A stretch of DNA of 64,000 nucleotides from Vicinamibacterales bacterium. Lineage in GTDB: Bacteria > Acidobacteriota > Vicinamibacteria > Vicinamibacterales > UBA8438. Positions 18,313-55,329 of the stretch are shown piece after piece. How positions within the stretch are numbered: position 1 is the stretch's first letter; every line of letters starts with the position of its first letter. A program made the position numbers and the translations under genes. The DNA lies in the NCBI GenBank assembly GCA_965249175.1, contig OZ252227.1, forward strand, positions 6,320,043-6,384,042, written 5' to 3'. A model generated the notes under the pieces. That model searched no databases. It saw only the letters and a program-made list of their open reading frames with translations, and had not been told where the DNA came from.

Positions 18313-19717
18313 TCTTAGTTGAAAATTGAAACGGCTCCAGACCCTGTGGTGTGATGACGTTGCAAAAGACGGACATCACCCCACGAGAGAGAGGAGCCAC
18401 GATGAGTGGCCTACGTGCTGTCAGGAAGCGCAAGAAAGTTCGCAAGCTGGGCTCGGTCAACATCATTCACCGCGAGGCCTACGCGGATCTGGAGCTGGAC
18501 GCGAAGGTGGAGCTGATCCGCTCGCTGGTGCCCCTGGGCCTGATGCATGTGCAGGAGTTGCTCGACCAGGAGGTGACGGCGCTGGCGAGCGAGCGCTACG
18601 TCCGGAAGGACGCGTCGGTCGGTGGACGCCGTCACGGCAGTAACCCTGGGACGGTGGGTCTCGCGGGGCAGCGCGTGCCGATTCGCGTGCCCCGGATTCG
18701 TCGCCTCGCAGGGAGCGAGATTCCGCTGCGGTCGTATGAGGCGTTGCATGACGACCGCGAGGTGGACGACGCGCTGCTGCGACGGGTGCTCTACGGGATC
18801 TCGTGCCGCAACTACGCGGCGGCCGCGGCGGCGATTCCCGGGGCGATCGGGCTGTCGAGTTCGACGGTGTCCCGGGGGTTCATCCAGGCCAGCGCGGCGC
18901 AGCTACGGGCGTTCCAGGAGCGGGACCTATCCGATGAGGACGTGGTGGCCGTGTTCCTGGACGGCAAGACGTTCGCTGACGCGACGATGGTCATCGCGCT
19001 AGGCATCACGCTGTCTGGGGAGAAACGCTTCCTGGGCTTCGTCGAAACGGACACGGAGAACGCGACGGTGCTCACACCGTTCCTGCGGTCGTTGGTCGAG
19101 CGGGGCCTCGACCTCTCCCAGGGTGTGCTGGTCATCCTCGATGGCGGCAAGGGGCTCCGCACGGCCGTCCGGAAGGCCTTCCGGGGCCGGGCCCTGGTCC
19201 AACGGTGCCAGTGGCACAAGCGCGAGAACGTGGTGAGCTACCTGGCCAAGCACGAGCAGGCGGTGTGGCGTCAGCGTCTCCAGCGAGCGTACAACCGGCC
19301 GGACTACGACGAGGCCCTCGGTGCGCTCGAGACGCTCCACGGCGAGTTGGACGAGCGGAACCAGTCGGCGGCTGACAGCTTGGCGGAAGGCCTGGACGAA
19401 ACCCTGACGTTACATCGATTGGGCGTGTACGGAGTGCTGGGCCGGTCGCTGAAGACGACGAACTGTCTGGAGTCGGTCAATGCGCTGGTCGAGGAACGCT
19501 GCGCGAAGGTAGATCACTGGCAGAGCTCGAGCCAACGCCACCGCTGGCTGGCGACCGCCCTCCTGGACATCGAACCGCGCTTACGAAGGGTGAGGGGCTA
19601 CCGCCACCTTCCCACGCTTCGGGCCGCATTGAAGCGAGAACTGAAGATCGACACGACGACGTCGAAGAAGCAGGCCGCGTAAGCCATCGGGAGCCGTGGA
19701 GAGTTTCAACTAAGAAT
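18311..19717 (+). mobile_element. IS256-family insertion sequence, copy B (unrelated in sequence to copy A)
   Basis: Terminal inverted repeats AATCTTAGTTGAAAATTGAAACGGCTCC (18311-) and GGAGCCGTGGAGAGTTTCAACTAAGAAT (-19717). Confidence 0.85.
18351..19682 (+). CDS. IS256 family (mutator-type) transposase
   Basis: 443 aa. VFLDGKTFADATMVIALGITLSGEKRFLGF...LDGGKGLRTAVRKAF...CQWHKRENVVSYL. Confidence 0.9.
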   Translation: MMTLQKTDITPRERGATMSGLRAVRKRKKVRKLGSVNIIHREAYADLELDAKVELIRSLVPLGLMHVQELLDQEVTALASERYVRKDASVGGRRHGSNPGTVGLAGQRVPIRVPRIRRLAGSEIPLRSYEALHDDREVDDALLRRVLYGISCRNYAAAAAAIPGAIGLSSSTVSRGFIQASAAQLRAFQERDLSDEDVVAVFLDGKTFADATMVIALGITLSGEKRFLGFVETDTENATVLTPFLRSLVERGLDLSQGVLVILDGGKGLRTAVRKAFRGRALVQRCQWHKRENVVSYLAKHEQAVWRQRLQRAYNRPDYDEALGALETLHGELDERNQSAADSLAEGLDETLTLHRLGVYGVLGRSLKTTNCLESVNALVEERCAKVDHWQSSSQRHRWLATALLDIEPRLRRVRGYRHLPTLRAALKRELKIDTTTSKKQAA

Positions 19718-23026: not shown

Positions 23027-25477
23027 ATGCGCACGGGTCGGCATGTACTGGTTGTCGGGCTCTTGGCAACCACCGCGCTTTTTGGGACCGCTCCCGCGTC
23101 CGCGGGCCAGCAGACGACGGTCGATCCGGCGTCCGCACAGGCGCTGCTCAGCCGGTACTGCATCACCTGTCATAGCGAGCGCCTCAAGACGGGCGGGCTG
23201 TCTCTCGAAGCGGTTGATATCGCCAGCGCCGGCGACCATGCCGCGGTCTTCGAGAATGTCGTCCGCAAGGTGCGTGGCGGCGTCATGCCGCCCGTTGGTC
23301 GACCACGCCCCGATGATTCGACGCTGGACGGGTTCGCGACGTGGCTCGAGACCGAGCTCGACGGAGCCTGGGCCTTGGCCCGAGACCCCGGTCGCACGCA
23401 GACCTTCCATCGACTCAACCGAGCGGAGTATCGGAACGCCATCCGCGATCTGCTGGCGCTCGACCTCGAGATCGTCGACTTCCTCCCCGCCGACGACGCC
23501 AGCTACGGCTTCGACAATATCGCCGGCATTCTGAGGATGTCGCAGTCGCTGATGGAGCGGTATCTCTCGGCGGCTCGGACGATCAGCCGGATGGCCGTGG
23601 GGAATCCACCGCCTGCCGTCGACTCGGCCACGTACAGGGTCGCCCAGGATATGCAGCAGCAGCATCAGCGCGAGGAGCTGCCGTTCGGCACGCGTGGCGG
23701 GCTGCTGGTCGAGCATTACTTTCCGCAGGACGCCGAGTATGTCTTCAGCGTGGAAGTTTCGGGAGACAGAAACCTCACGGAGCCCCATCATCTGGAGCTG
23801 ACCGTGGACGGCGAGCAAGTACGACTGTTCACGCTGCCGCAACCAGAGCCAGAGCCGGACGCAGAGCCACAGCCGGCGGCGCGCGTCCAAACGAACACAA
23901 CCGCTGTCGTCTACGCCGCCGACGGGAAGTACGCGGTGCGTGTTTCGGTCGGCGCGGGTCCTCGCGATGTTGGCGCGACGTTTTACAAGAAGCCGACACC
24001 GCTTGTCGAGCAGGTCAGGGAAGTGTTCGAGAACCCACGCATCTCGGGGAATCCCGGCCTGGGTGGGCGGATGCCGACCGTCACCAGCGTGTCGATCGCG
24101 GGGCCCTACGACGCGGTGGGTGCGGGTGAGACGCCGAGCCGCCAGCAGGTGTTCGTCTGCCGTCCGTCGACCGAGGCCGACGAAACGCCGTGCGCGAGGA
24201 CGATCGTGGCGAGGTTGGCGCGGCGCGCCTACCGTGGATACGTCCTGGACGAGGATGTCGACGTATTGCTCGACTTCTACGAGGCAGGTCGGGCGGATGG
24301 CGGCAGCTTCGAAGACGGAATCGAGCTGGCGCTCCGGCGGCTGCTCGTCAGTCCCGAATTCCTCTACCGCATCGAGGCTGACGCGCGTGATGCCGACGCG
24401 TACGCCGCCGCCTCCGGTGTGTACCGGCTGAGCGATCTGGCGCTGGCGTCTCGACTGTCGTTCTTTCTCTGGAGCAGCATCCCCGACGAGGCGCTGCTCG
24501 CCGTTGCGGAGGAGGGACGCTTGACGGATCCCGACGAGCTGGATCGTCAGGTGACACGCATGCTGGCCGACCCGCGGTCGGTGGCCCTGACAGACAACTT
24601 CGCCGGTCAGTGGTTGCAGCTGCGGAACCTGGAAACGGTCGTCCGGCCTGGCGACCCCTACTCGCTCGTGTTCGACGAATCGCTCCGCCAGGGCATGCTG
24701 CGTGAGACCGAGCTCTTCATCGACAGCATCATCCGCGACGACCGGAGCCTCGTCGAGATCCTCACGGCCGACTACACGTATCTGAACGAGAGGCTGGCCC
24801 GGCACTACGACATCCCGCATGTGAGGGGCAGCCAGTTTCGACGCGTGGCCCTACCCGCCGAGAGCCCGCGCCGCGGCCTCCTGGGACATGGCAGCGTGCT
24901 GACGATCACGTCCCACGCGATTCGGACCTCGCCGGTCAACCGTGGGAAATGGATTCTGGACAACGTCCTGGGGACACCGCCGCCCGACCCGCCGCCGAAC
25001 ATCCCGGCGCTCGATGACAAGCGGACGCAGCAAAAGGTCGCCACGTTGCGCGAGCGGATGTCCGAGCACCGGGCGAATCCCGTGTGTGCCAGCTGCCACA
25101 ACGTGATCGACCCGGCGGGGTTCGCGCTCGAGAACTTCGATGCGGTCGGCCGGTGGCGCACCGTCGACGAATCGTTCAATCCGATCGACGCATCCGGCTC
25201 GCTCCCTGACGGCACGCCGTTCGATGGGGTCGTCGACCTCACCGGTGCGCTCGTGCAGCGGCCCGAGCGGTTCGTGACCACTGTGACCGAGAAGTTGCTG
25301 ATCTACGCCCTGGGCCGAGGCGTCGAGTACTACGATATGCCAGCCCTGCGGGGGATCGTGAGAGAGGCCGCCGCGACCAATTACTCGTCGCACGCGATCG
25401 TGCGCGGTATTGTGAGGAGTTATCCGTTTTTGAATCGGAGAAGCGCAGCCGACGACCTCGGGTCCGCCGCTCCGTGA
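23027..25477 (+). CDS. DUF1592/DUF1588/DUF1585-family protein with an N-terminal c-type heme motif (copy 1)
   Basis: Signal peptide, then LLSRYCITCHSERLKTGGLSLE (CxxCH). Family hallmarks FHRLNRAEYRNAIRDLL, SRLSFFLWSSIPD, DNFAGQWLQLRNL, ADYTYLNERLARHY, SPVNRGKWILDNVLGTPPPDPPPN, CASCHNVIDPAGFALENFD. Confidence 0.8.
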   Translation: MRTGRHVLVVGLLATTALFGTAPASAGQQTTVDPASAQALLSRYCITCHSERLKTGGLSLEAVDIASAGDHAAVFENVVRKVRGGVMPPVGRPRPDDSTLDGFATWLETELDGAWALARDPGRTQTFHRLNRAEYRNAIRDLLALDLEIVDFLPADDASYGFDNIAGILRMSQSLMERYLSAARTISRMAVGNPPPAVDSATYRVAQDMQQQHQREELPFGTRGGLLVEHYFPQDAEYVFSVEVSGDRNLTEPHHLELTVDGEQVRLFTLPQPEPEPDAEPQPAARVQTNTTAVVYAADGKYAVRVSVGAGPRDVGATFYKKPTPLVEQVREVFENPRISGNPGLGGRMPTVTSVSIAGPYDAVGAGETPSRQQVFVCRPSTEADETPCARTIVARLARRAYRGYVLDEDVDVLLDFYEAGRADGGSFEDGIELALRRLLVSPEFLYRIEADARDADAYAAASGVYRLSDLALASRLSFFLWSSIPDEALLAVAEEGRLTDPDELDRQVTRMLADPRSVALTDNFAGQWLQLRNLETVVRPGDPYSLVFDESLRQGMLRETELFIDSIIRDDRSLVEILTADYTYLNERLARHYDIPHVRGSQFRRVALPAESPRRGLLGHGSVLTITSHAIRTSPVNRGKWILDNVLGTPPPDPPPNIPALDDKRTQQKVATLRERMSEHRANPVCASCHNVIDPAGFALENFDAVGRWRTVDESFNPIDASGSLPDGTPFDGVVDLTGALVQRPERFVTTVTEKLLIYALGRGVEYYDMPALRGIVREAAATNYSSHAIVRGIVRSYPFLNRRSAADDLGSAAP

Positions 25478-25500
25478 CCCTGCCTGCGAGAGAGGACACC

Positions 25501-26844
25501 ATGATCGTTACGAAGAAATATCTGCCGAGACGCACCATCCTGCGTGGGCTCGGGGCCACCGTGGCGTTGCCGTTTCTCGATGCCATGGCGCCGGCGCTCA
25601 CCGCCGCCGCGCAGACCGCCGCGAATCCCGTCCCGCGGATCGGGTTCTTCTATGTTCCGAACGGCATGTTCCTGCCGAGCTTTCATCCGAAGGGTGACGG
25701 GGGAGCCAACTTCGAGCTGTCACCGACCCTGACGCCGCTCGCGCCGTTCCGCGACCAATTGACGGTCCTGAGCGGTCTGAGCAACAGCGGTGTCGTGAGC
25801 CCGAATGAAGGCGGTGGGGTCCACACGCGGGCGCACGGCGGTTGGCTCAGCGGAGTGCTGCCGCGCCGCACCGAGGGTGCCGACCTCGAGGCGGGCAAGA
25901 CCCTCGATCAGTATGCGGCCGACAAGCTCGGCGCTGACACCTCGCTGCGGTCACTCGAGCTGACAATTGATTCCAGCTTCCAGGTCGGCAACTGTGAGAA
26001 CGGCTACAGCTGTGCGTATCTGAACTCGAGCTCCTGGCGAACCGCGACGACCCCGCTGCCGCACGAGCGCGACCCGCGGGTCGTGTTTCAGCGGCTGTTC
26101 GGCGATGGCGGCAGCATCGAGGCCCGCGTGGCGCAGATGCGGACCGACCGCAGCATCCTCGATTCGGTCTCGGGTAGCATCAGCCGGCTCGAGCGGCGTC
26201 TCGGTCTCCGAGACCGCACGACGGTGGAGGAGTACCTCGATTCCGTCCGGGAGATCGAGCGGCGAATCCAGCGCGCAGAGCGCAACAGCGCGACGACGCC
26301 CCTGCCCGACCTGGAGCAGCCCGACGGTGTGCCGGACGACTACGACGAGCATGTCAAGATCCTCCACGATCTCCTCGTGCTGGCATTCCAAGCGGACGTG
26401 ACGCGTGTGAGCTGCATGCAGATGGCGCGCGAGCTGAGTGGGCGTGCGTACCCTCAAATCGGAGTTCCCGAGGGACACCACACGGTCTCGCATCACCAGT
26501 TGGACCAGCACAACACGGCGCAATACACCAAGATCAACACGTACCACATGTCGCTGTTCGCGCGGTTCCTCGAGAAGATGCGGTCGACGCCAGACGGCGA
26601 CGGCAATCTGCTGGACCATTCCATCTTCCTCTGGGGCGCGGGGATGGGCGATGGCGACAAGCACACGCCCTACGACCTGCCGGTGTCGCTCGTCGGCGGC
26701 GGGTGCGGGACGCTCGAGGGCAATCGGCACCTGAAGTACGCCATGCATACGCCATTCATGAACATGGGGCTGAGCGTGCTCGACAAGGTGGGCGTTCACG
26801 TCGACGCGCTCTCCGACAGCACCGGGCGGCTGACCGATCTGTGA
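25501..26844 (+). CDS. DUF1552 domain protein with a Tat-type signal (copy 1)
   Basis: ATG at 25501 after the GAGAGAGGA RBS. MIVTKKYLPRRTILRGLGATVALPFLDAM...; ...HHTVSHHQ...LWGAGMGDGDKH. Confidence 0.8.
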   Translation: MIVTKKYLPRRTILRGLGATVALPFLDAMAPALTAAAQTAANPVPRIGFFYVPNGMFLPSFHPKGDGGANFELSPTLTPLAPFRDQLTVLSGLSNSGVVSPNEGGGVHTRAHGGWLSGVLPRRTEGADLEAGKTLDQYAADKLGADTSLRSLELTIDSSFQVGNCENGYSCAYLNSSSWRTATTPLPHERDPRVVFQRLFGDGGSIEARVAQMRTDRSILDSVSGSISRLERRLGLRDRTTVEEYLDSVREIERRIQRAERNSATTPLPDLEQPDGVPDDYDEHVKILHDLLVLAFQADVTRVSCMQMARELSGRAYPQIGVPEGHHTVSHHQLDQHNTAQYTKINTYHMSLFARFLEKMRSTPDGDGNLLDHSIFLWGAGMGDGDKHTPYDLPVSLVGGGCGTLEGNRHLKYAMHTPFMNMGLSVLDKVGVHVDALSDSTGRLTDL

Positions 26845-26872
26845 CCATATCCCTCATGGGAACAGCACGAGG

Positions 26873-28510
26873 ATGAGGAGCACCATGGTGACATCTCGAA
26901 GTGCCCGGTGGATGGTCGCGTTCCTGGTGGTGTCGGTCTGCGTGCCGTCCTTTGCGACGGCCAAGACGGCCGACGTTCCGCTGCTGGAGGCGGTCAGGGC
27001 AGTCGATCTGGAGGCGGTTCGCGCCCTGCTCGATCAGGGTGTGGACGTGAATACGACCGCCGTCGATGGCGCGACCCCGCTCCATTGGGCAGCGTATCGG
27101 GACGAGCCGGCGCTGGTCGCGCTGTTGCTCGACGCTGGCGCGGATGTGACCGTCGCCAACCGGTACGGCGTCCTGCCACTGTCGTTGGCGAGCCTGCACG
27201 GGAACGCTGAGGTCATCGAGCTGCTGCTGCGGGCCGGTGCTGATCCGAACACCACATTGCCGGAGGGGGAGACGGCGGTGATGACGGCCGCGCGGACAGG
27301 CAACCCCGACGCCATCCGTGTCCTGGTGAGCCACGGGGCCGACGTCAACGCTCGTGACGAAGTGCATGGCCAGAGCGCCCTCATGTGGGCAGCCGCGGAG
27401 GGACACGCCGAGGCGATCCATGTGCTCGCCGAGGTCGGGGCCGACATCAACGCGCGCACCGCGCGGGACAACGGCCCCCCCCCTCGTCGGGGATTGTTCG
27501 CGAGTGCGTCGCCGACCGGCTTCACGCCGTTCTTGTTCGCCGTCCGTGCGGGGCATCTCGACGCGGCGCGTCTTCTGCTCGAGGCGGGTGCCGACGTCAA
27601 CGACACGCTGTCCGATGGACAGAGTGCGCTCGTCGTTGCCGCGGCGAACGCCAACTGGGCATTGGCGGACTACCTGCTCGACCGGGGGGCCGATCCGAAT
27701 CTGGCCGGCGCGGGCTGGAACGCGCTTCACCAGACGGTGCGAACCCGCCGCATGAACTGCTGTCAGGGCACGCCCGGGCCGATTCCGGCGGGGACCGTGG
27801 AGAGTCTCGACGTCATGCGGAAGCTGGTCGCGAAGGGTGTCGATGTCGACGCCCGCATGACGCGAAACGGGATGAAGGATGGGCAACGGAGTCGGCTCAA
27901 TCGCCTCGGCGCGACCGCCTTTTTCCTGGCCGCCAAAGTCACCGACGTCGAGGCGATGAGGTATCTGGTCGAGGTGGGCGCCGACTCCAGCATCCCGAGC
28001 GCCGAGAATTCGACACCGCTGATGGTGGCGGCCGGGCTCGACATCTGGAATCCTGGGGAGGATGGTGGAACGTTCTCCGGTCAGGAAGCAGAGGTGCTCG
28101 AAGCAGTGACGATGTGCGTCGAGTTGGGGAACGACGTCAATGCGGTGAACGACCTCATGGAAACGGCTCTCCACGGCGCCGCGTTCAGGGGGGTCAACAT
28201 CGTCGTCGATTATCTCGTCGCGCAGGGCGCGAAGCTCGATGCACGGGAAACACACGGGTGGATTCCGTGGGCCATCGCCGACGGGTTCAGCTACTCGGAT
28301 TTCTACAAGGCCCAGAAGCACACGGCCGAGCTTCTGGCCACGTACATGAGGGCGCAGGGCCTGTCGACAGAGGGTGAAGTCATACCGGGGTCGGTGTGTT
28401 TCGACTGTTTACAGACCCGGTCGGACCAGGCGCGTGCCGCCCGCGATCGCGACGAGCGGATGGAAGCCGAGTTCGCGCTCCTGTACGCGCGGGAGAAAGA
28501 CCAGCAGTAG
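26873..28510 (+). CDS. secreted ankyrin-repeat protein (copy 1)
   Basis: Signal peptide. Many ANK repeats (DGATPLHWAAYRDEPALVALLLDAGADV, GETAVMTAARTGNPDAIRVLVSHGADVN, ...). Confidence 0.8.
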   Translation: MRSTMVTSRSARWMVAFLVVSVCVPSFATAKTADVPLLEAVRAVDLEAVRALLDQGVDVNTTAVDGATPLHWAAYRDEPALVALLLDAGADVTVANRYGVLPLSLASLHGNAEVIELLLRAGADPNTTLPEGETAVMTAARTGNPDAIRVLVSHGADVNARDEVHGQSALMWAAAEGHAEAIHVLAEVGADINARTARDNGPPPRRGLFASASPTGFTPFLFAVRAGHLDAARLLLEAGADVNDTLSDGQSALVVAAANANWALADYLLDRGADPNLAGAGWNALHQTVRTRRMNCCQGTPGPIPAGTVESLDVMRKLVAKGVDVDARMTRNGMKDGQRSRLNRLGATAFFLAAKVTDVEAMRYLVEVGADSSIPSAENSTPLMVAAGLDIWNPGEDGGTFSGQEAEVLEAVTMCVELGNDVNAVNDLMETALHGAAFRGVNIVVDYLVAQGAKLDARETHGWIPWAIADGFSYSDFYKAQKHTAELLATYMRAQGLSTEGEVIPGSVCFDCLQTRSDQARAARDRDERMEAEFALLYAREKDQQ

Positions 28511-37563: not shown

Positions 37564-37712
37564 GGCGTCTCGTCGCGCGCGCCACGGGCCGCAACGCGTA
37601 AGACCGCTTGATGTTGGCACCCGCGTGCGCTCACCCGGTCTCAAGCCATCCGTGTACACTCGGAGGCGCACGGACGTTGAAGTGGCGACTTGGCCTTGCG
37701 GGAGGTATGGAC

Positions 37713-38852
37713 ATGAGGCGACGACTGCTCGAGTCGCTCGGTGCGACAACGGTGTTCACAACCCTCATGGTGCTCCTGCAGCTCACCACCGTGCCGGTCG
37801 TCGGCCAGGCTCCGAGTGCGACCGCGTGGGGGCATCCAAACCTGGAGGGCATCTGGCTCGACGTCTACGCCACACCCTTTGAACGGGCGCCAGAGCTTGG
37901 CGCTCGAGAGTTCGCGACCCCCGAAGAGCGTGCCGCATTGGATCAGGCCCGTATGGGAAACGCAGGGCGTGACCGGCGCGGCCCGCCGGGGAGTCCGCAA
38001 GACGTGTCCGGGGCATACAACGCCGTCTATACCTCGGTGAAGCCAGCGGGTCCACGCACGTCGCTGGTCGTCGATCCACCGAACGGGAGGATTCCCGACT
38101 TGACGCCCGAGGCCCAGCGCGAGGACGAGGTCCGGCGCCAGTGGCGTGTCATGCTCATGCGGAACACGCCGACCTGCGAGCAAGACGCACCCGCTTGCGA
38201 GGGCGGGCAATTCGGGCCACCATCGCCGCGTCGGTTCGATGTCCCCTCCTTCTACAACACGTTGCGCATGAACCGCCACGACGGCCCTGAGGACCAGAGT
38301 TTGGGCGATCGGTGCATGCTTGGCGCCACACCCGATTTCAACGGGTTCCGCCGCATCGTGCAGGGCGGGGAGTCGATCGCGATCGGGTATGACACCGGGC
38401 AGGGCCAGGGGTTCCAGCGCGTGGTCTACCTGAGCGGGAGCCATCCGGCCAGCCAGATTCGTCTGCGGCACGGGGACTCACGTGGCCGCTGGGAGGGCGA
38501 TTCGCTGGTCATCGAGACCACGAACTTCTCGCCCAAGTTCCCCTACCGCGGTTCGGGTGAGAACCGGAAGCTCGTCGAACGATACACGCGGGTCGACGAG
38601 GATACGCTCGAGTACGAACTGACGATTGAGGACCGGACGGTGTGGGTGGCGCCGTGGACCGTCCGGCAGGAACTGAAGCGTCAGAGTGATGAGCAGAATC
38701 GGATTTACTATGAGCCGCGGTGCCACGAAGGGAACTATGGATTGGCCGCGATGTTCATCGGTGCGCGGGTTCGCGAGCAGGAATTTACGGCCGGGGGTGG
38801 TCCTAATCCGTTCTCATTGGACACCACCACGGGCGGCGGTGGTGCGCGGTAG
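37713..38852 (+). CDS. secreted protein of unknown function, tandem paralog 1
   Basis: GGAGG RBS and second ATG chosen. Signal peptide. Colinear with the next gene; most positions are identical by eye (…WGHPNLEGIWLDVYATPFERAPELG…GRWEGDSLVIETTNFSPKF…YYEPRCHEGNYGL…). Confidence 0.7.
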   Translation: MRRRLLESLGATTVFTTLMVLLQLTTVPVVGQAPSATAWGHPNLEGIWLDVYATPFERAPELGAREFATPEERAALDQARMGNAGRDRRGPPGSPQDVSGAYNAVYTSVKPAGPRTSLVVDPPNGRIPDLTPEAQREDEVRRQWRVMLMRNTPTCEQDAPACEGGQFGPPSPRRFDVPSFYNTLRMNRHDGPEDQSLGDRCMLGATPDFNGFRRIVQGGESIAIGYDTGQGQGFQRVVYLSGSHPASQIRLRHGDSRGRWEGDSLVIETTNFSPKFPYRGSGENRKLVERYTRVDEDTLEYELTIEDRTVWVAPWTVRQELKRQSDEQNRIYYEPRCHEGNYGLAAMFIGARVREQEFTAGGGPNPFSLDTTTGGGGAR

Positions 38853-38879
38853 CGAGTCGCGATGTCAGGAGGCATGGAG

Positions 38880-40019
38880 ATGAAGCGACGACTGCTCAAG
38901 TCGCTCGGTGTGGCGATGCTGATCACGAGCGCGATGGTGCTCGTGCAGCTCACCTCGGTGTCGGTGGCGGGACAGGCTCCGAGCGCGACCGCATGGGGCC
39001 ACTCCAACCTGGAAGGCATCTGGCTAGATGTGTATGCCACGCCCTTCGAGCGGGCGCCGGAGCTTGGCGATCGCGAGTTCGCCACGGCGGAAGAGCGAAC
39101 CGCACGGGATCAGGCCCGAATGATCAACCCGGGGCGCAACCGGCGCTCGGACCGCGCAGGGCAGGACGTTGCCGGCGCATACAATGCCGTCTTTACCTCG
39201 GCGAAGCCGGCTGGTCCACGTACGTCGCTTGTGGTCGATCCGCCCAACGGGAGGATTCCCGCCCTCACCCCGGAAGCCCAGCGGCAGAACGAACTACAGC
39301 GAGAGTGGCGTCTGATGCTCCTGCGAAACACGGAGACCTGCCAGAGGGAAGCTCCAGGCTGCTCCGGCGGGGAGTACGGGCCACCGTCTGCGCGCAGATT
39401 CGATGTCGCTCCGTTCTACAACACGTCGCGCATGAACCGCCACTTTGGCCCGGAGGATCAGAGCTCGGGCGACCGGTGCATGTCAGGTCGCACACCCGAT
39501 TTCAACGGGTTCCGCCGCATCGTACAGGGCGAGGATGCGATCGCGATCGGCTATGACACTGGGCAGGGCCAGGGGTTCCAGCGCGTCGTCTACCTGAGCG
39601 GGAGCCATCCGGCGAGCCAGATCCATCTGCGGCATGGGGACTCGCGTGGTCGATGGGAGGGTGACACGCTGGTCATCGAGACCTCGAATTTCTCGCCAAA
39701 GTTCCCCTTCCGCGGGTCGGGCGCGAACCGTCTGCTCGTCGAACGGTATACGCGTGTGGATGCAGACACGCTCCAACACGAGATCACGATCGATGATCCG
39801 ACGGTGTGGGCGGCGCCGTGGACCGTTCGGCAGGAACTGAAGCGTCAAAGTGACGAAGAGAACCGAATCTACTACGAGCCGCGGTGCCACGAAGGGAACT
39901 ACGGCCTGCCGGCCCTGCTCATCGGCGCGCGCGTGGATGAGCAGGCGTTTGCGGCGGGGCGCGGGCCGGATCCGTTTTCCATGGATACCGCCACGTGTGT
40001 CAATGGCTTACCGGAGTGA
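38880..40019 (+). CDS. secreted protein of unknown function, tandem paralog 2
   Basis: Same length as paralog 1 (1140 nt), same RBS/ATG arrangement (AGGAGGcatggagATG), same motifs. Confidence 0.7.
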   Translation: MKRRLLKSLGVAMLITSAMVLVQLTSVSVAGQAPSATAWGHSNLEGIWLDVYATPFERAPELGDREFATAEERTARDQARMINPGRNRRSDRAGQDVAGAYNAVFTSAKPAGPRTSLVVDPPNGRIPALTPEAQRQNELQREWRLMLLRNTETCQREAPGCSGGEYGPPSARRFDVAPFYNTSRMNRHFGPEDQSSGDRCMSGRTPDFNGFRRIVQGEDAIAIGYDTGQGQGFQRVVYLSGSHPASQIHLRHGDSRGRWEGDTLVIETSNFSPKFPFRGSGANRLLVERYTRVDADTLQHEITIDDPTVWAAPWTVRQELKRQSDEENRIYYEPRCHEGNYGLPALLIGARVDEQAFAAGRGPDPFSMDTATCVNGLPE

Positions 40020-40025
40020 GGAGCG

Positions 40026-41024
40026 ATGATGCGAAACTGGTTCAGAGGATCGACGGTTGTCGTGGCGCTGGCCGCCGCCATTGTGGGTGCCGTTGTCTCG
40101 GTCGCGGTGACCAGTACGGCCGGGCAAGGCCAAGACCAAGATCAAGACCAAAGCCAGGCGCCGCGTCCGGCGCAAACGCCCGACGGCAGGCCAAACTTCA
40201 ATGGCGTATGGCAGGCCAACAACGAAGCGCATTGGGACCTGGAAGCCCACGACGCACGTCCGGGGATGGTGACGCAGGAAGGCGTCTACCCATACGAGTA
40301 CGCGAGGGTGCCCGCAGCGCCCGTGGTGGCGCTAGGTGCCGCGGCCGGAGTGCCCGGGTCGTTGGGAGTCGTGGGGGGTGACGGTCGGATCCCCTACACA
40401 CCCGAAGCTCTCCGCAGTAAGCAGGAGAACGCCGAGAACTGGATCGACCGCGATCCAGAGCTCAAGTGCTACCTGCCCGGTATTCCGCGCGCGATGTATA
40501 TGCCCTATCCCTTCCAGATCGCCCAGGGCACGGACAAGATCCACATGACGTTCGGTTTTTCCAACGCCGCGCGTGTCATCCATCTGAACGACGTCACCGG
40601 GCCCCCGGACTATACCTATATGGGGCATTCGGTCGGACGGTGGGACGGGGACACGCTGGTCGTTGACGTGACGTACTTCAATGGCAGGACCTGGTTCGAC
40701 AGGGCCGGAAACTTTCATGGTGAGGACTTGCAGCTCACAGAGCGGTTCTCGCCGATGACGCCCGACGCCATCTGGTATGAAGTGACGGTTACTGATCCGG
40801 AGACGTTTACCCGCCCGTGGACGATCGCGATGCCGCTGTATCGGCGTCTTGAACCGAGTGCCACAGTGCTGGATTATCCCTGCATCGAGTTCGCCGAAGA
40901 GTTCATGTATGGGCACTTGCGGAGGGAGCAGCTGGTGAAGCGATGGGAAGGCGAGACCATGATCGTGGAAATCACTCGCAAGGTTCCGCCTGGCGATCTC
41001 CTTCACGAGTGGTATCGACGGTAG
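40026..41024 (+). CDS. secreted protein, distant member of the same family
   Basis: Starts 6 nt after the previous stop. Signal peptide plus a QDQDQDQ linker. Shares GRWDGDTLVVDVTYFNG..., ...ERFSPMTPDAIWYEVTVTDPETFTRPWT... with the corresponding regions of the two paralogs. Confidence 0.7.
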   Translation: MMRNWFRGSTVVVALAAAIVGAVVSVAVTSTAGQGQDQDQDQSQAPRPAQTPDGRPNFNGVWQANNEAHWDLEAHDARPGMVTQEGVYPYEYARVPAAPVVALGAAAGVPGSLGVVGGDGRIPYTPEALRSKQENAENWIDRDPELKCYLPGIPRAMYMPYPFQIAQGTDKIHMTFGFSNAARVIHLNDVTGPPDYTYMGHSVGRWDGDTLVVDVTYFNGRTWFDRAGNFHGEDLQLTERFSPMTPDAIWYEVTVTDPETFTRPWTIAMPLYRRLEPSATVLDYPCIEFAEEFMYGHLRREQLVKRWEGETMIVEITRKVPPGDLLHEWYRR

Positions 41025-41055
41025 TGCGCCGTCAGACAAGAGGGAGGCAACACCC

Positions 41056-41517
41056 ATGAGAGCGAATCACGTGATCGGGGTCCTGATTGGGGTCGCAGGG
41101 ATCTGTGCGTGGACGGCGGGAACCGGTGTGCCTGTCACGGCGCATCACGCGTTCGCGGCCGAATTCGACGCGGACAAGCCGGTCGAGTTCAGTGGCACGG
41201 TCACCGAAGTCGAGTGGATCAATCCCCACGTCTGGATCCACATTGACGTGACGCGGGATGACGGCACCGTGGAGACGTGGGCGTTCGAAGCTGGTACGCC
41301 GAACGTGCTGTTCAGGCGGGGCTTTACGCGGGACTCGCTCCTGCCCGGAACCGACGTCATGGTCGATGGGTATCAGGCGAAGGATGGAACCAACCGGGCG
41401 AACGGGCGAGACGTCACGTTTGCCGACGGGACCAAGCTGTTTCTCGGGTCGTCTGGCACCGGGGCACCCTACGAACTGGCACGACCCGGTGTAGACACCG
41501 CGGATCCTCCGCGCTAG
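41056..41517 (+). CDS. DUF6152-like secreted protein
   Basis: AGGGAGG RBS and signal peptide. AHHAFAAEFDADKPVEFSGTVTEVEWINPHVWIHIDV...WAFEAGTPNVL fits my recollection of DUF6152. Confidence 0.6.
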   Translation: MRANHVIGVLIGVAGICAWTAGTGVPVTAHHAFAAEFDADKPVEFSGTVTEVEWINPHVWIHIDVTRDDGTVETWAFEAGTPNVLFRRGFTRDSLLPGTDVMVDGYQAKDGTNRANGRDVTFADGTKLFLGSSGTGAPYELARPGVDTADPPR

Positions 41518-41550
41518 GCGGTTAGGTTGGCCCCGGTCGGTTGACAGGGT

Positions 41551-43143
41551 GTGAGCGCGAAGCCAGGCGGAGCAGTCTACCTCTCGCCGTTGAGAGGGTT
41601 CTGTCTGGTTGGGTTCTTCGCACTCGGTCTCACTGCGTTCGTTCTCGTTGACTCCGTCAGGCAGAACCCAGGGGTTCAGCGGTCGTTTCTCGGCGCCGGC
41701 GTCTTGCTGCTCGCCTGGAGCGTCCCCGTGTTCGGGCTGGCTCAGCACACGGGCCGAACGCTGACACTTGCGGTCGTTCTTCGAAAGCAGCACTACATAC
41801 AAGCCAGCGCGCAGCTCGTCTTCCTGCTGTATTGGGGCTGGTACTGGCGTCCGGTCTACGACTCGGCCCTTCTCATCGCCGCTCAACTGGTCTTTGCCTA
41901 TGCGTTCGACATGCTGCTGTGCTGGTCGCGACGCGATAGGTACACCCTTGGGTTCGGCCCGTTCCCTGTCATCCTCAGCATCAACCTGTTCCTCTGGTTC
42001 GCGGATGATTGGTTTTACCTGCAGTTTCTTCTGGTGGCGCTGGGCTTCGCGGCTAAAGAGCTGATCCGGTGGAACAAGCAGGGACGGCAAGTCCACATCT
42101 TCAATCCCTCGTCGTTTCCGCTCGCTGTTGTCTCGCTCGCCTTGATTCTCACCGGTACCAGCGACCTCACGTGGGGCCAGGACATCGCGACCACACAGTT
42201 CTTTCCTCCACACGCGTATCTGGTGTTGTTCCTGGTCGCGCTGCCAGGGCAGTACCTCTTCGGCGTGGCATCCATGACGATGTCCTCCGTGATGGCCGCC
42301 TACGCGTTCGGGCTCCTCTACTTTGCCGCGACGGGCGTCTATTTTTTCTACGACTCGTATATCCCCATTGCCGTGTTTCTTGGCATGCATCTCTTGTTCA
42401 CGGACCCGTCCACGGCGCCGAGGAGTGAGGTGGGGCGCATTATGTTCGGGGTGCTCTACGGCTTCAGCACCGTGGCGCTGTATGCGCTTCTTGGTCGTGC
42501 GGGCGTGCCGACCTTTTACGACAAGCTGCTCCTCGTGCCTGTGCTGAACCTCTCTATTCAACTGCTGGACCGCGTGGCCTCAACGGGTTGGCTCCGGCAG
42601 TTCGATCGCGTGGCGCTTGGCGGCTCGAGTAGCCCGCGCCAGCGTCATCTTGCCCATATGCTGGTCTGGGCGGCAGTGTTTGCGGTCATGAGCGCCGTCC
42701 ACGGTGTGGGCGATCGTCATCCCGGCCAGTGGGTGCCGTTTTGGCAGGAGGCCTGCAGCCAGGGGCGAACGCATGCCTGTCCGTATCTCGCTGACATGCA
42801 GGAGACGTACTGTAGGAGTGGGTCCGGGTGGGCATGCAACGAAGCCGGCATCCTTCACGTCGCGCTGGCTCGCTCGGGAGAGGATCGTCGCCGGCTCGAC
42901 CCGGCAGACGCCGCAGGGGCGCTCGGGCGCGGATGCGACCTTGGCTTCGGGCCGGCGTGCCAGAACCTCGCGAGGCTAACCTCAGGGCTCAGCTCGTTTG
43001 AGCACGGACCACCGACGCTTCAGGACTATCCGATCATCTTGCGCGGCACGAAGGGACCGATCACGGACCGCTCACCAGCGGCACTGTATGCTCGAGCGTG
43101 CAGCCAGGGCTGGGCCAACACATGTAGTGGAGGCGAGAGGTGA
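41551..43143 (+). CDS. polytopic membrane protein with a C-terminal Cys-rich (Hcp/Sel1-like) repeat region
   Basis: 530 aa with a GTG start. About 10 hydrophobic segments, then ACSQGRTHACPYL..CRSGSGWACNEAG..GCDLGFGPACQNL..ACSQGWANTCSG. Confidence 0.6.
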   Translation: MSAKPGGAVYLSPLRGFCLVGFFALGLTAFVLVDSVRQNPGVQRSFLGAGVLLLAWSVPVFGLAQHTGRTLTLAVVLRKQHYIQASAQLVFLLYWGWYWRPVYDSALLIAAQLVFAYAFDMLLCWSRRDRYTLGFGPFPVILSINLFLWFADDWFYLQFLLVALGFAAKELIRWNKQGRQVHIFNPSSFPLAVVSLALILTGTSDLTWGQDIATTQFFPPHAYLVLFLVALPGQYLFGVASMTMSSVMAAYAFGLLYFAATGVYFFYDSYIPIAVFLGMHLLFTDPSTAPRSEVGRIMFGVLYGFSTVALYALLGRAGVPTFYDKLLLVPVLNLSIQLLDRVASTGWLRQFDRVALGGSSSPRQRHLAHMLVWAAVFAVMSAVHGVGDRHPGQWVPFWQEACSQGRTHACPYLADMQETYCRSGSGWACNEAGILHVALARSGEDRRRLDPADAAGALGRGCDLGFGPACQNLARLTSGLSSFEHGPPTLQDYPIILRGTKGPITDRSPAALYARACSQGWANTCSGGER

Positions 43144-43173: not shown

Positions 43174-45192
43174 CTACATCGAGGTGGGGAGCGCGAACGC
43201 GACGTACTCACCCGAGTACGGCCCACCGCTGATCGCCACCACGATGTATTGCCGGCCGTCAAGCAGGTACGTCATTGGCGACCCTGACTGCGGCGCGGGC
43301 ATGAAGACCGCGCCGACATCGACACCGGTCGCCTTGTCGTACGCGCGGAGCATGGCGCCCCGCCCGTCTTCCGTCGCGTGGTAGCTGCACTCGCCGATAA
43401 CGACCAGTGTCTTGGTCACCAGCGGTCCGACGAGTCCGGCGCAGAGCTCGCCCGTGCGCGGGATCTCGAGATCGGCCAGCGCCGGGTGAAGACGCACGCG
43501 GTCCGGTGTCTCGCCGTGTGGTGTCTGCCAGATGAGTTCCCCCCGGTCGAGGTCGATCGCCGAGAGCCGGCCATACGGCGGCTTCGACAACGGCAGTCCC
43601 CGCACGTTCAGATCGCGCAGGCCGCCATGGCCGACCCCGTGCATCGGCGTGCCCTTGACGTAGCGCATGTCCGAGACGTCGCCGCTGGGCGGAGGGATCA
43701 GCTCCCACGAATAGAAGGCGGTGCGCGACGGCACGTAGACGACGTGGGTTTCCGGGTCGTATGCCCCGCCGGGCCAGTTCGTGCCGCCGCTCCCGGCCCC
43801 GAGTCCGAGCGTGGCGATCGGTCCTTCCTCGCGACTAACGACCGGTGGGGTGAAGATCGGGCCCAGCTTGTAGCGCGACACGACCGCCTCGGCCTCCGCC
43901 CGCAGCTCTGGCGTGAAGTCGATCAGGTCGTCGAACGACGAGCCCTGCTTGTCATAGGGCGGAGGCTTCGTCGGGAACGGCTGCGTCGGCGCGTACCACT
44001 CACCCGGGACGTCACCCTGCGGCACCGGCCGCTCTTCGATCGGCCAGACCGGCTCGCCCGTGACCCGGTCGAAGACGTAGAGGAAGGCCTGCTTGCTCGG
44101 CACCGCAACCGCTTTGATCTCGCGGCCGTCGACGGTGATGTCCGCGAGGATCGGCGGGCACGCCATGTCGAAACCCCAGAGCGGGTGGTGCACGAACTGG
44201 AAGTGCCACAGGCGCTCGCCGGTCCGCAGGTCGACGGCGACCAGGCTCTCGCCGAAGAGGTTGTCACCTGGTCGATGACCGCCGTAGTAGTCGCCCGTGG
44301 GTGTCTCGACCGGCAGGTAGACGATGCCGAGATCGGCGTCGACGGAGATCTGCGTCCAGACGCCGTTGTTCCCGTTGACACCCCAGGAATCGTTGACCCA
44401 CGTCTCGTGGCCGACCTCACCCGGCCCCGGAACCGTCCGGAACGTCCACAGTCGCTCGCCGGTACGGACGTCGAACGCCTGGACCAGTCCCTTGGTGTTG
44501 TTGTGGGTCGGTGGAGCCGGCGCATCGGCGAACGCGCCGCCGACGATGACCACATCGCGGGCCACCGTCGGTGTGGCGTGCAGGCCGATCTCACCGCTCA
44601 CCGGGTCGATGCGCCGGCCCTCGCCGTATACCGCCGCCGCCTTCAAATCGATGCGGCCGTCCGTCCCGAAGCCGGGCACCCTCAGCCCTGTTGCGGCATC
44701 GAGCGCGACGAGCCGGAATCCCAGGGTGACATAAAGGACGCGCGCGTCCGTTCCGTCGGTCCAATACGACAGACCGCGGCCCGAGAGGAGACGCGGGGCG
44801 CCGGCGGCGCGCTCCCCCTCATCCTCCCCATGGACCCAGCGAAGCTCCCCGGTGCCGGCGTCGAGGGCGACGACCGACCGGCGGGTGCCGCCGGTCGCGA
44901 ACAGCACGCCGCCGACCATGAGCGGCGTTCCCTCCAGCTTGAACTCGGGGCGCGGGCCGAGGTTGTCGGTCTTGAAACGCCACGCCACTTCGAGATCGGC
45001 GAAGTTGGACGCGTCGATCTGATCCAGCGGGGAGTAGCGTGTATGGGCGATGTCGCCGCCGTACGCTGGCCACTCGCCGGCGGCGGTCGACGGTGGGGAT
45101 TGCGCCTGGGCGAGCACACCCGCGGTCACCCATGCGAGCGCCGCGGTGACCGCGAACGCCGGTCGCAGTGTTCGGGTCAGGAAGCTGGACAT
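43174..45192 (-). CDS. soluble PQQ-dependent dehydrogenase (alcohol/glucose dehydrogenase family)
   Basis: 672 aa with a signal peptide. GEWPAYGGDIAHTRYSPLDQI, EVAWRF, GTPLMVGGVLFATG, VVALDAGTGELRWVH, eight-bladed W-motif pattern. Confidence 0.85.
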   Translation of the reverse strand: MSSFLTRTLRPAFAVTAALAWVTAGVLAQAQSPPSTAAGEWPAYGGDIAHTRYSPLDQIDASNFADLEVAWRFKTDNLGPRPEFKLEGTPLMVGGVLFATGGTRRSVVALDAGTGELRWVHGEDEGERAAGAPRLLSGRGLSYWTDGTDARVLYVTLGFRLVALDAATGLRVPGFGTDGRIDLKAAAVYGEGRRIDPVSGEIGLHATPTVARDVVIVGGAFADAPAPPTHNNTKGLVQAFDVRTGERLWTFRTVPGPGEVGHETWVNDSWGVNGNNGVWTQISVDADLGIVYLPVETPTGDYYGGHRPGDNLFGESLVAVDLRTGERLWHFQFVHHPLWGFDMACPPILADITVDGREIKAVAVPSKQAFLYVFDRVTGEPVWPIEERPVPQGDVPGEWYAPTQPFPTKPPPYDKQGSSFDDLIDFTPELRAEAEAVVSRYKLGPIFTPPVVSREEGPIATLGLGAGSGGTNWPGGAYDPETHVVYVPSRTAFYSWELIPPPSGDVSDMRYVKGTPMHGVGHGGLRDLNVRGLPLSKPPYGRLSAIDLDRGELIWQTPHGETPDRVRLHPALADLEIPRTGELCAGLVGPLVTKTLVVIGECSYHATEDGRGAMLRAYDKATGVDVGAVFMPAPQSGSPMTYLLDGRQYIVVAISGGPYSGEYVAFALPTSM
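43182..43249. repeat. 68-bp perfect direct repeat, copy B (inside the 3' end of the intact PQQ dehydrogenase gene)
   Basis: Identical to 33504-33571. Confidence 0.95.
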
Positions 45193-47193: not shown

Positions 47194-49664
47194 ATGCGGG
47201 CGCGGGCGTTGACGGTGTGCCTGGCGGTCCTCGCGGCGTGCGCGTGGGCGCCTCGTGCAGGTGCCGCCCGGCACCCGGAGACCGCTGGCAACCCGCAAAC
47301 GCGTCCAGCGCGTCCCGCGACTGGAGCGGCGACCCCGCAGCGCGCCCTGCTCGATCGCTACTGTGTCACCTGCCACAACACGCGGTTGAAAACCGGCGGT
47401 CTCGCGCTCGACGGGGTGGACGTCACCGATGTCGGCGCGGCCCCCGCGCTCTGGGAGCAGGTCGTCCAGAAGTTGCGTGGCGGGATGATGCCGCCGGCGG
47501 GCCGGCCGCGCCCCGATCAGCATACCTACGACGAGTTCCGATCGTGGCTGGAAACGGGGCTCGACCGTGTGGCCGCGACGCGGCCGGAGCCTGGTCGCGT
47601 CCCCACCCATCGCCTGAACCGCGCCGAGTACGCGAACGCCATTCGCGACCTGCTCGCGCTGGATGTCGACGTCGCCTCGCTACTGCCCGCGGATGACTCC
47701 GGTCACGGGTTCGACAACCTGGCCGGCACGCTCGCGCTCTCGCCCGTCCTGCTCGAACGCTATATGTCGGCGGCGCGGCGGATCAGCCGGCTCGCGGTCG
47801 GTGATCCGACGATCGGCCCAGGATTCACATCGAAGACCTACGTCGTGCCGATCAACATGGCGCAGAACGACCGGATGAGCGAGGACCTGCCGTTCGGGTC
47901 GCGCGCCGGCATCGCGGTTCGCCACCGGTTTCCGCTCGACGGCGAGTACGTCATCAGGATCCGATTGAAGCGGAGCGTCTACGAGTACATCGTCAACCTC
48001 GACGAAGTGCACGACCTCGACCTGCGGCTGGATGGCCAGCGCATCGCCCGTTTCAGCGTGGGCGGTGGAGGTGGGGGCACGCCAGCGCCGGTCAGTTTCT
48101 CGGGGACCTTCGTGGCGGCCGGCGACGCGGCATACCCGAGCCAGGAATGGGACGACTACCGCACGGGCGCCGATGCCGATCTTGCCGCGTGTCGTTCGTG
48201 GGCAAGGCGTGGGAACACGAAGGCGTGCTGCAACCGCCGCTCAGGGAATACGGCGCGACCGTCACGGAGACCACGGACACGTCGTCGCGCCCGGAAGGGC
48301 CTGGTATCGAGAGCGTGGCCGTCGATGGTCCCTACGCGGTGACGGGGCCGGGTGAGACCGCGAGCCGCCAACGGATCTTTGTCTGCCGGCCGGAGGGCGG
48401 CGCCGGTAGTGCCGAGGCGCAGTGCGCGAGGACGATTCTTTCGACCTTGGCGCGGCGCGCGTATCGCCGCCCGGCCACCGACGCTGATGTCGAGCCACTG
48501 CTTCCGTTCTACGAGTCCGGGCGCGCGCGGGGTGGCTTCGACGAGGGCATCCAGGCGGCGCTCGAGCGCATCCTCATCGACCGGGAGTTTCTGTTCCGCA
48601 TCGAGCGCGATCCGGCCGATGTGGCGTCCGGCGCCCCGTACCAGCTCAGCGATCTCGAGCTCGCGTCCCGATTGTCGTTCTTCCTCTGGAGCAGCATTCC
48701 CGATGACGAGCTGCTTGACGTTGCGACCCGCGGGCATCTGTCCGATCCCGACGTCCTCGAGCAGCAGGTCCGGCGCATGCTGGACGACGTGCGCGCCACG
48801 GCACTCGTCGACAACTTCGCTGGCCAATGGCTGTCGCTTCGCAGCGTCGACGGCATCGCTCCCGATCCGAACCTGTTTCCCGGGTTCGACGAGAACCTCC
48901 GCGAGGCGTTGAGACGCGAGACCGAGCTGTTCGTCGAGAGCCAGCTCCGTGAGGATCGGGGCGTCGTCGAGCTGTTGGGGGCCGATTACACGTATCTCAA
49001 CGAACGGCTCGCCCGGCACTACGGCGTGCCGAACGTGCGCGGCAGCCGGTTCCGGCGGGTGACACTGGATGATGATCGCCGTCACGGCCTGCTCGGCCAC
49101 GGCAGCATTCTGGCGGTGACGTCCTACGGCAACCGGACGTCGCCGGTGCTCCGGGCGAAGTGGTTGCTCGAGAACGTCCTCGGCACACCCCCGTCGCCGC
49201 CCCCGGCGGACGTGCCGGCGCTGCCAGACGCCGGCGACGCGGATGACCCGCGCACGGTCCGCGAGCGTCTCGCCATGCACCGGCGGAGCTCGGCGTGCGC
49301 GGTGTGCCACGCGCCGATGGATCCGCTCGGCTTCGCGCTCGAAAACTTCGACGCGATCGGGGCGTGGCGCACCACCGACGCCGGCCTGCCGATCGATGCC
49401 GCGGCGGTCCTCGCCGACGGCGTGACGACGTTCAACGGTCCGTCGGAGCTGCGCGAGGTGCTTCTCGGTCGCTCGCCGCAGTTCGTGGAAACCGTGACGG
49501 AGAAGCTCCTCATCTACGCCCTCGGCCGGGGACTCGAGCACTACGACCGGCCGGTCATCCGCGCGATCGTGCGAGATGCCGAAGCGCAGAACTACCGCTG
49601 GTCGGCGCTGATCCTGGGCATCGTCGACAGCACGCCGTTTCGGATGCGGAGGTCGGAGTCATGA
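47194..49664 (+). pseudogene. DUF1592-family heme-motif protein (copy 2), frameshift near 48180-48195
   Basis: ORFs 47194..48342 and 48147..49664 are the two halves of one homolog of 23027..25477 (CVTCHNTRLKTGGLALDG...; ...SRLSFFLWSSIPD, DNFAGQWLSLRSV, CAVCHAPMDPLGFALENFD). The join is ...RTGADADL | VSFVGKAWEHEGVLQPP. Confidence 0.75.
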
Positions 49665-55288: not shown

Positions 55289-55329
55289 GGATGGGCTCCG
55301 CCCTGGCGCTAGCTGCTAGAGGAGTGTTC

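Follow-up and report, generated by a model that had tools for sequence, protein, structure and literature searches.

A conserved exported ankyrin gene beside DUF1592/DUF1552 pairs, expanded about 40-fold in a Vicinamibacterales genome

Is an ankyrin-repeat protein encoded beside a DUF1592/DUF1552 pair a working partner of that pair, or a gene that merely lies nearby? The question is raised by three genes, called A, B and C below, at positions 23027-28510 of a 64,000-nucleotide (nt) stretch of a Vicinamibacterales bacterium (contig OZ252227.1 of assembly GCA_965249175.1, positions 6,320,043 to 6,384,042, forward strand), the whole of which is referred to here as the window. The original prediction, made from the sequence of the window, described the genes as tightly packed on one strand, and the gaps of 23 and 28 nt, counted from the ATG starts, bear this out. 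The members of this first copy of the trio, each an open reading frame (ORF), are:

23012/23027 to 25477, plus strand: gene A, exported two-haem DUF1592-type protein (Pfam, AlphaFold2 model)
25474/25501 to 26844, plus strand: gene B, DUF1552 (HXXSHH) protein with a twin-arginine translocation (Tat) signal (Pfam, E 2e-90)
26873 to 28510, plus strand: gene C, exported ankyrin protein of about 12 repeats, 545 amino acids (aa) (Pfam Ank families)

The trio extends far beyond the window. The genome is one contig of 6.64 Mb with 66.6% G+C, and all its ORFs were scanned with the three window proteins. DUF1552 matches number 43-44, and 40 DUF1552 genes are of the window type. An ankyrin paralog stands directly beside 37 of these 40 genes or pairs, downstream on the same strand in 20 trios, upstream on the same strand in 7, upstream and divergent in 9, and downstream and convergent in 1. 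Two pairs have no adjacent ankyrin gene. The first stands second in a tandem, where it and the other pair share one ankyrin gene; for the second, the ankyrin gene lies 2.7 kb downstream and a transposase-sized ORF (443 aa) sits between genes A and B. One further window-type DUF1552 gene is an orphan. Away from these pairs ankyrin genes are nearly absent from the genome, about 8 ankyrin paralogs being orphans. The trio had been recorded as present twice; both window copies are indeed there, the second at 47194-52971, but the true scale is an expansion of about 40-fold. Together the roughly 40 trios take up some 200 kb (3% of the genome), and their number suggests a central role in the soil life of Vicinamibacteraceae. 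Genomes of the same family hold 10-46 DUF1552 matches, bar three small ones with 0-3, and those of other families of the order hold 0-13. A tandem at 2031062-2040465, arranged ANK>A>B>A>B, combines two cytochrome/DUF1552 pairs with a single ankyrin gene.

The same neighbourhood recurs in other genomes. An ankyrin-seeded search of a species-representative genome collection was evaluated for its best 80 loci, 75 of which have enough flanking sequence to judge; the DUF1592/DUF1552 pair is adjacent in 66 of these, with the order A, B, C in 64. The taxa represented are Vicinamibacteria, Bryobacterales and Terriglobia, together with two bins that carry a Verrucomicrobiota label. A second sampling, seeded with DUF1552 and blind to ankyrin, covered ten other Vicinamibacterales genomes, where most sampled pairs have an ankyrin neighbour, and a Verrucomicrobiales genome, where only 2 of 17 pairs do, these being the two closest to the acidobacterial type. 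The original prediction had proposed asking whether ankyrin genes are enriched beside such pairs elsewhere. They are enriched within one clade (the 37 of 40 pairs here and the 66 of 75 loci), but not beside DUF1592/DUF1552 pairs generally.

This clade is sharply delimited. In a maximum-likelihood tree of 104 DUF1552 proteins, sampled irrespective of ankyrin neighbours, all 68 ankyrin-linked members fall into one clade with a Shimodaira-Hasegawa-like approximate likelihood ratio test (SH-aLRT) support of 99. The clade comprises 72 rows, of which 68 are linked, 3 are unlinked and 1 is undecidable, and none of the 32 proteins outside it is linked. The ankyrin label changes 5 times on the tree, against a mean of 30 when shuffled, and 0 of 500 shuffles gave a value as low. 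Because all linked DUF1552 proteins share one clade, the tree indicates that the ankyrin partner was recruited once, marks a subfamily and is rarely lost. The linkage persists across at least 14 genera of this family and is also seen in further families of the order and in other classes. Among the 33 complete trios of this genome, Mantel correlations between the distance matrices are 0.78 for A and B, 0.68 for B and C, and 0.69 for A and C, with 0 of 2000 permutations as high, and such correlated matrices imply that the trio duplicates and diverges as a unit.

The notion that the three genes form a conserved unit is thus upheld by their adjacency in this genome, in other families and at the ankyrin-seeded loci, and from these comparative data it is very likely that A, B and C share a function. 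Co-transcription is not what binds the trio together, since the ankyrin gene lies on the opposite strand in about 10 of the 37 triads. Scans of both window copies for promoters and terminators returned nothing beyond shuffled expectation, and no shared motif was seen by eye in the 75 nt upstream of the 38 gene A paralogs.

The domain content of gene A suggests what kind of function this may be. From the N terminus, the protein comprises a class-I cytochrome c domain (CITCH), a helical PSD3 domain, a beta-sandwich resembling a carbohydrate-binding module (CBM), PSD5, PSD4, PSCyt3 (CASCH) and PSD2. The Pfam matches of copy 1 are PSCyt1, PSD3, PSD5, PSD4 (DUF1592), PSCyt3 (DUF1588) and PSD2 (DUF1585), every match exceeding the gathering cut-off except a borderline Cytochrome_CBB3. 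A CxxCH haem motif had been predicted and is present, but it is not single, as the CITCH and CASCH motifs make two. Residues C45, C48, H49 and M87 and residues C687, C690 and H691 are invariant in 34 gene A homologs, as is the Met-Pro-Pro distal-ligand motif that begins at M87. Both CxxCH motifs occur in 38 of 38 gene A paralogs of this genome, and they are kept in ankyrin-less clades too. The AlphaFold2 model has a predicted local distance difference test (pLDDT) score of 78 and a predicted template modelling (pTM) score of 0.81. Its only Foldseek match spans residues ~199-361, a jelly-roll beta-sandwich similar to CBM35, CBM36, CBM6 and BcsB carbohydrate-binding domains; no match was found outside the beta-sandwich. 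This is also the most variable domain of the protein, with 38% mean identity across 37 paralogs of the same genome versus 54-67% for the other domains, and such variability would fit a role in specificity. A hydrophobic N terminus is seen in 36 of the 38 paralogs; signal peptides were called throughout only from such N-terminal hydrophobic stretches.

Gene B adjoins gene A downstream on the same strand, and its product combines the HxxSHH motif (which reads GHHTVSHH) with a twin-arginine leader. The predicted Tat signal is well founded: the leader reads RRTxLRG, R10 and R11 are invariant, and 35 of 40 paralogs have the motif. With 40 homologs as input, AlphaFold2 modelled the protein at a pLDDT of 74 and a pTM of 0.81. 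The top 50 Foldseek neighbours of this model in the PDB all belong to the alkaline-phosphatase superfamily (E ~1e-3, template modelling (TM) scores 0.35-0.42) and include sulfatases, phosphonate monoester hydrolases, LtaS/EptA/YejM and alkaline phosphatase. DUF1552 accordingly models as the core alpha/beta fold of this superfamily. HHalign, run with a diverse 34-sequence DUF1552 profile, aligned 365 columns with the DUF1501 of this genome (probability 97.9%, E 3.5e-12), placing H108, H331 and H388 opposite the conserved His, WDxH and GRDH positions of DUF1501, a family that we take to be part of Pfam's alkaline-phosphatase clan. A shallow DUF1552 profile gave no significant HHalign match to DUF1501, and comparison of DUF1552 with the five sulfatases of the genome returned nothing. 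More than 7,700 DUF1552 proteins were returned by one search; the homologues listed were all orthologs of at least 76% identity, so the profile is no deeper. NCBIfam offers no curated model for gene A or B, and for gene C only far-sub-threshold repeat matches.

The conserved residues of DUF1552 differ from those expected of the superfamily. Positions R10 and R11 (of the Tat signal), G55, H108, D136, D221, R250, E253, H327 and H331 are invariant family-wide, and D372 and H388 are nearly so. The canonical nucleophile motif (CxPxR or SxPxR) is absent from the sequence. No acidic metal ligand follows the first core strand: strand 46-51 is succeeded by V-P-N-G with no conserved Asp or Glu, P53 being invariant in the close alignment (A1) and G55 in both alignments. 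In the model, H108 starts the helix 107-116, and we infer that this histidine may take the place of the superfamily nucleophile. H327, H331, D372 and H388 are candidate His/Asp ligands of a putative metal site.

Gene C is built from ankyrin repeats (copy 1: E 7e-61, with Ank_2 at 203 and 221 bits in Pfam). A family alignment of 144 sequences displays the ankyrin consensus over the full length, about 12 repeats, and contains no catalytic-looking motif. The signal-type N terminus anticipated for this protein is a hydrophobic stretch seen in 35 of 45 gene C paralogs. The C-terminal tail of the copy-1 protein carries a CFDC (CxxC) motif (28400-28450) that is not kept among the paralogs of this genome, several of which share instead a tail ending ...LGIPGTVQERLRDV.

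The second window copy differs from the first in two respects, a disrupted gene A and a gene C fused to a cytochrome domain:

47194 to 49664, plus strand: gene A, disrupted DUF1592-type gene in frames 47194-48342 and 48147-49664
49661 to 51034, plus strand: gene B, Tat-signal DUF1552 protein, its ATG overlapping the gene A stop (ATGA)
51034 to 52971, plus strand: gene C, exported ankyrin protein with a C-terminal class-I cytochrome c domain

The three-gene order does recur here as had been described, but the first gene is not intact, being split over the two frames, between which its Pfam domains (PSD3, PSD5, PSD4, PSCyt3 and PSD2) are divided. The estimate that roughly half of the positions are identical between the copies agrees with the measured 56% for DUF1592 (C-terminal 485 aa), 50% for DUF1552 and 43% for the ankyrin protein. 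An orthologous locus in a genome of the same genus (L101, 86% nucleotide identity) has an intact gene A of 837 aa, together with an intact DUF1552 gene and the same ankyrin-cytochrome fusion. Alignment with L101 places 37 missing nt near 48170-48200, where copy 2 has 5 nt and L101 has 42. Genes B and C of copy 2 stay open despite this deletion, and the disrupted gene A is either a pseudogene or the product of an assembly error. Recent local duplication was considered as the origin of the two window copies and excluded, as they fall into different DUF1552 subclades and so are old paralogs. Just beyond the window end, the DUF1552 gene of a neighbouring trio (6384625-6386546, minus strand) is likewise split over two frames, with Pfam positions 1-83 in one and 75-307 in the other, making it the second interrupted trio member within 20 kb.

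The cytochrome domain on the copy-2 ankyrin protein is genuine, scoring 43.3 bits against PF13442 (cut-off 27) and 35.5 bits against PF00034 (cut-off 21.3); it covers residues ~555-641 and has a CATCH motif at residue 566. The fusion was found in 1 of about 47 paralogs in this genome and, apart from the ortholog in the same genus that keeps it, in 0 of 116 homologs elsewhere. As a one-lineage event it is a weak argument for the periplasmic redox process for which the original prediction had invoked it. The suggestion of such a process instead draws on the two invariant haem motifs of gene A.

Building on gene linkage, domain content, folds, motif conservation and co-diversification, we infer an export route, complex formation, redox chemistry and an ankyrin role as follows. 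The products of the trio would make up an exported enzyme complex with an alkaline-phosphatase-fold catalytic protein, a two-haem protein for electron transfer or ligand binding, and the ankyrin protein as dedicated adaptor or maturation factor, a proposal whose chances we judge to be about even. The three genes would then constitute one exported functional unit, duplicated and inherited as a block. Gene B would be the likely catalytic subunit; as a Tat substrate it would presumably fold and acquire its metal before leaving the cytoplasm. In its active-site region, invariant histidines and acids (H108, D136, D221, H327, H331, D372 and H388) would replace the Ser, Thr or formylglycine nucleophile. 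Gene A would be the Sec-exported partner, with two c-type haems that could pass electrons to or from the enzyme; its ligand specificity would be determined by the variable CBM-like beta-sandwich. The 12-repeat solenoid of gene C may act as a protein-binding adaptor, stabiliser or maturation factor of its own A/B pair, and the periplasmic substrates would differ among the ~40 paralogous trios.

Several observations weigh against this proposal. The Foldseek scores of the DUF1552 model are modest, and searching PDB sequences with close (A1) and diverse (A3) DUF1552 profiles returned only chance coiled-coil matches. The equivalence of H108 to the nucleophile derives from its secondary-structure position and the DUF1501 alignment, not from superposition. 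Only one residue or indel position in DUF1552 is specific to the ankyrin-linked clade, and no docking surface was located; in gene A, too, only a few residues are specific to that clade. Flanking genes differ from trio to trio and provide no pathway context that would fix the substrate. The cytochrome fusion that prompted the redox idea is confined to a single lineage. Finally, c-type haems are attached by the Ccm (cytochrome c maturation) or system II machinery, so that a haem-trafficking role for the ankyrin protein, like that considered for Cj1386 (see below), is not obviously needed.

A bolder version of the proposed complex is that the trio represents an unrecognised class of periplasmic redox metalloenzyme, with a histidine-ligated metal, electrons passing through the cytochrome, substrate choice by the CBM-like domain and the ankyrin protein as an obligatory subunit. 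In this case DUF1552, and by homology DUF1501, would have traded the hydrolytic nucleophile for a His-ligated metal centre. The ankyrin protein would clamp A and B together or dock them to other electron carriers, a docking that the copy-2 cytochrome fusion would make permanent. We consider this unlikely. If it were true, the forty such enzymes in a genome would constitute a major and as yet unstudied extracytoplasmic route for the oxidation of soil organic matter.

Two alternatives retain a function for the conserved genes but distribute it otherwise. DUF1552 may be a hydrolase or transferase acting on phospho-, sulfo- or phosphono-esters in nutrient scavenging, with gene A serving for binding or tethering, its haems being structural or regulatory, and the ankyrin protein a folding or stabilising factor. 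Every structural neighbour of DUF1552 is a hydrolase or transferase of the alkaline-phosphatase superfamily, gene A has a CBM-like domain, and substrate-diverse hydrolases typically form large paralog families. However, DUF1552 has neither CxPxR nor another canonical nucleophile, nor an acid after beta-strand 1, and carries an invariant His at what is probably the nucleophile position; the two haem motifs, moreover, are invariant in every gene A clade, a constancy that dispensable haems would not readily account for. We therefore regard scavenging hydrolysis as rather improbable, if still worth entertaining. It is also conceivable that the ankyrin protein is no subunit at all but a guard, an inhibitor or an independent exported protein, kept nearby by co-regulation or co-duplication. 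The roughly 10 of 37 ankyrin genes on the opposite strand must have their own promoters, orthologs of the copy-1 ankyrin gene at L010, L012-L014, L016 and L020 are no longer immediately adjacent to the pair, orphan ankyrin paralogs exist, and block duplication alone could yield the co-diversification. Yet adjacency has outlasted repeated rearrangement of position and strand as well as divergence across classes of Acidobacteriota and the two Verrucomicrobiota-labelled bins, and the genome has hardly any ankyrin genes except beside these pairs, which together make a mere bystander or antagonist quite unlikely.

The remaining alternative, that the adjacency is a functionally meaningless artefact of repeat-rich, recombining islands, has in its favour that trios cluster with other expanded families, namely pyrroloquinoline quinone (PQQ) dehydrogenases, FG-GAP/ASPIC proteins and tetratricopeptide repeat (TPR) proteins. 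For the other genes of these islands the enrichment is only 2-7 fold, and none is a constant neighbour; the ankyrin linkage, by contrast, arose once according to the DUF1552 tree and persists across at least 14 genera, other families and other classes. An artefact of this kind is hardly credible.

Genes A and B belong to a recognised type of gene pair. Pairs of PSCyt3/PSD proteins (DUF1587-DUF1595-DUF1592-DUF1588-DUF1585) with DUF1552 were first noted in Rhodopirellula baltica and are treated in freshwater Verrucomicrobia, according to passages of PMC5615132. The window genes share with those of Planctomycetota and Verrucomicrobiota the same families, order, haem motifs and Tat signal; unlike other clades, they have a constant exported ankyrin partner and an expansion of about 40-fold in one acidobacterial genome. 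Our literature search, on DUF1592, DUF1552, DUF1501 and PSCyt as well as on ankyrin combined with Solibacter or Vicinamibacter, turned up neither a functional study nor any report of the ankyrin link. PSCyt2/PSD1 (DUF1549/DUF1553) pairs with DUF1501 follow the same logic, an exported multidomain protein with haem motifs beside an enzyme-like protein with a Tat signal. DUF1552 and DUF1501 are homologous over their whole length, with conserved histidines aligned, although their partner domains differ, and a comparison of coordinates places no ankyrin gene within ~10 kb of any of the genome's five strong DUF1501 genes. With the enzymes of the alkaline-phosphatase superfamily (type I sulfatases, phosphonate monoester hydrolases, LtaS/EptA, nucleotide pyrophosphatases/phosphodiesterases (NPP) and alkaline phosphatase), DUF1552 would share the core fold. 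It has no similarity to these enzymes at the sequence level, however, and neither a CxPxR or Ser/Thr nucleophile nor an Asp following beta-strand 1; its conserved set is His-rich, and it is accompanied by an obligatory cytochrome partner.

Ankyrin-like proteins encoded beside haem enzymes may offer a precedent for gene C as an accessory protein. To judge by their titles, papers on AnkB and the catalase KatB of Pseudomonas aeruginosa, on AnkB and CatB of Xanthomonas, and on Cj1386 and KatA of Campylobacter report that such proteins are needed for optimal enzyme activity or for haem delivery. The common feature is an exported or accessory ankyrin-repeat protein encoded beside a haem protein, a likeness drawn from the titles only; gene C, for its part, has a signal-like N terminus and a neighbour with haem motifs. 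AnkB-type accessories are small and have b-haem catalases as partners, whereas gene C has 12 repeats and is paired with a c-type cytochrome and an alkaline-phosphatase-fold protein. The papers on the ankyrin partners of KatB (PMC94626), CatB (PMC5795068) and KatA (PMC4325098) are titles in the reference list of PMC10294975.

The ankyrin partner adds a third component to a large protein system of unknown function. DUF1592/DUF1552 pairs, with the homologous DUF1549-1553/DUF1501 pairs, are among the largest exported families without an assigned function in Planctomycetota, Verrucomicrobiota and Acidobacteriota, and a constant ankyrin partner offers both a handle for pull-down experiments and a marker of the clade. 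In relatives that have just one trio (genomes G015 and G028), a knockout would be feasible. Should gene C prove to be a dedicated periplasmic ankyrin subunit, it would be one of few in free-living bacteria.

The genomic surroundings of the trios were assessed as the families found within 8 kb of them, for which 9.7% is expected. The members near trios are 11 of 15 for FG-GAP/ASPIC, 9 of 17 for a 749-aa CarboxypepD_reg family, 7 of 12 for TPR and 27 of about 109 for PQQ beta-propellers (binomial p = 4e-6). The FG-GAP/ASPIC-UnbV protein at 1145099-1147426 and its paralogs are the strongest non-constant neighbour (p = 7e-9). PQQ dehydrogenase was considered as a fixed fourth partner and dropped, being only 2.5-fold enriched near trios. 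The picture is one of trios sitting in islands of extracytoplasmic oxidative and hydrolytic enzymes with no single fixed pathway.

Copy 2 has on one side a PQQ-dependent dehydrogenase (43174-45192, minus strand), which is one of the roughly 109 PQQ beta-propeller ORFs of the genome; a beta-propeller protein and three further enzymes also flank it. The first of these enzymes, a multicopper oxidase of three domains (53144-55288, plus strand), is encoded directly downstream of the ankyrin-cytochrome gene, and genes for an amidohydrolase (55216-56745) and a zinc alcohol dehydrogenase (56781-57782) come next. Pfam returned no match at E < 0.001 for four consecutive plus-strand ORFs of 330-530 aa at 37608-43143 (37608-38852, 38862-40019, 40026-41024 and 41551-43143). 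Elsewhere in the genome, a secreted protein of ~400 aa (1164435-1165649, plus strand), which has the motif ...WEGDTLVIESTNF... and no Pfam match, belongs to a family of ~141 paralogs (E < 1e-10), 22 of which lie near trios, a weak enrichment. Copy 1 is flanked by a divergent ABC (ATP-binding cassette) transporter on one side and beta-propeller proteins on the other, and 3.3 kb upstream of this copy, at 18351-19682 on the plus strand, is a transposase of the Mutator family (PF00872, E 1e-37).

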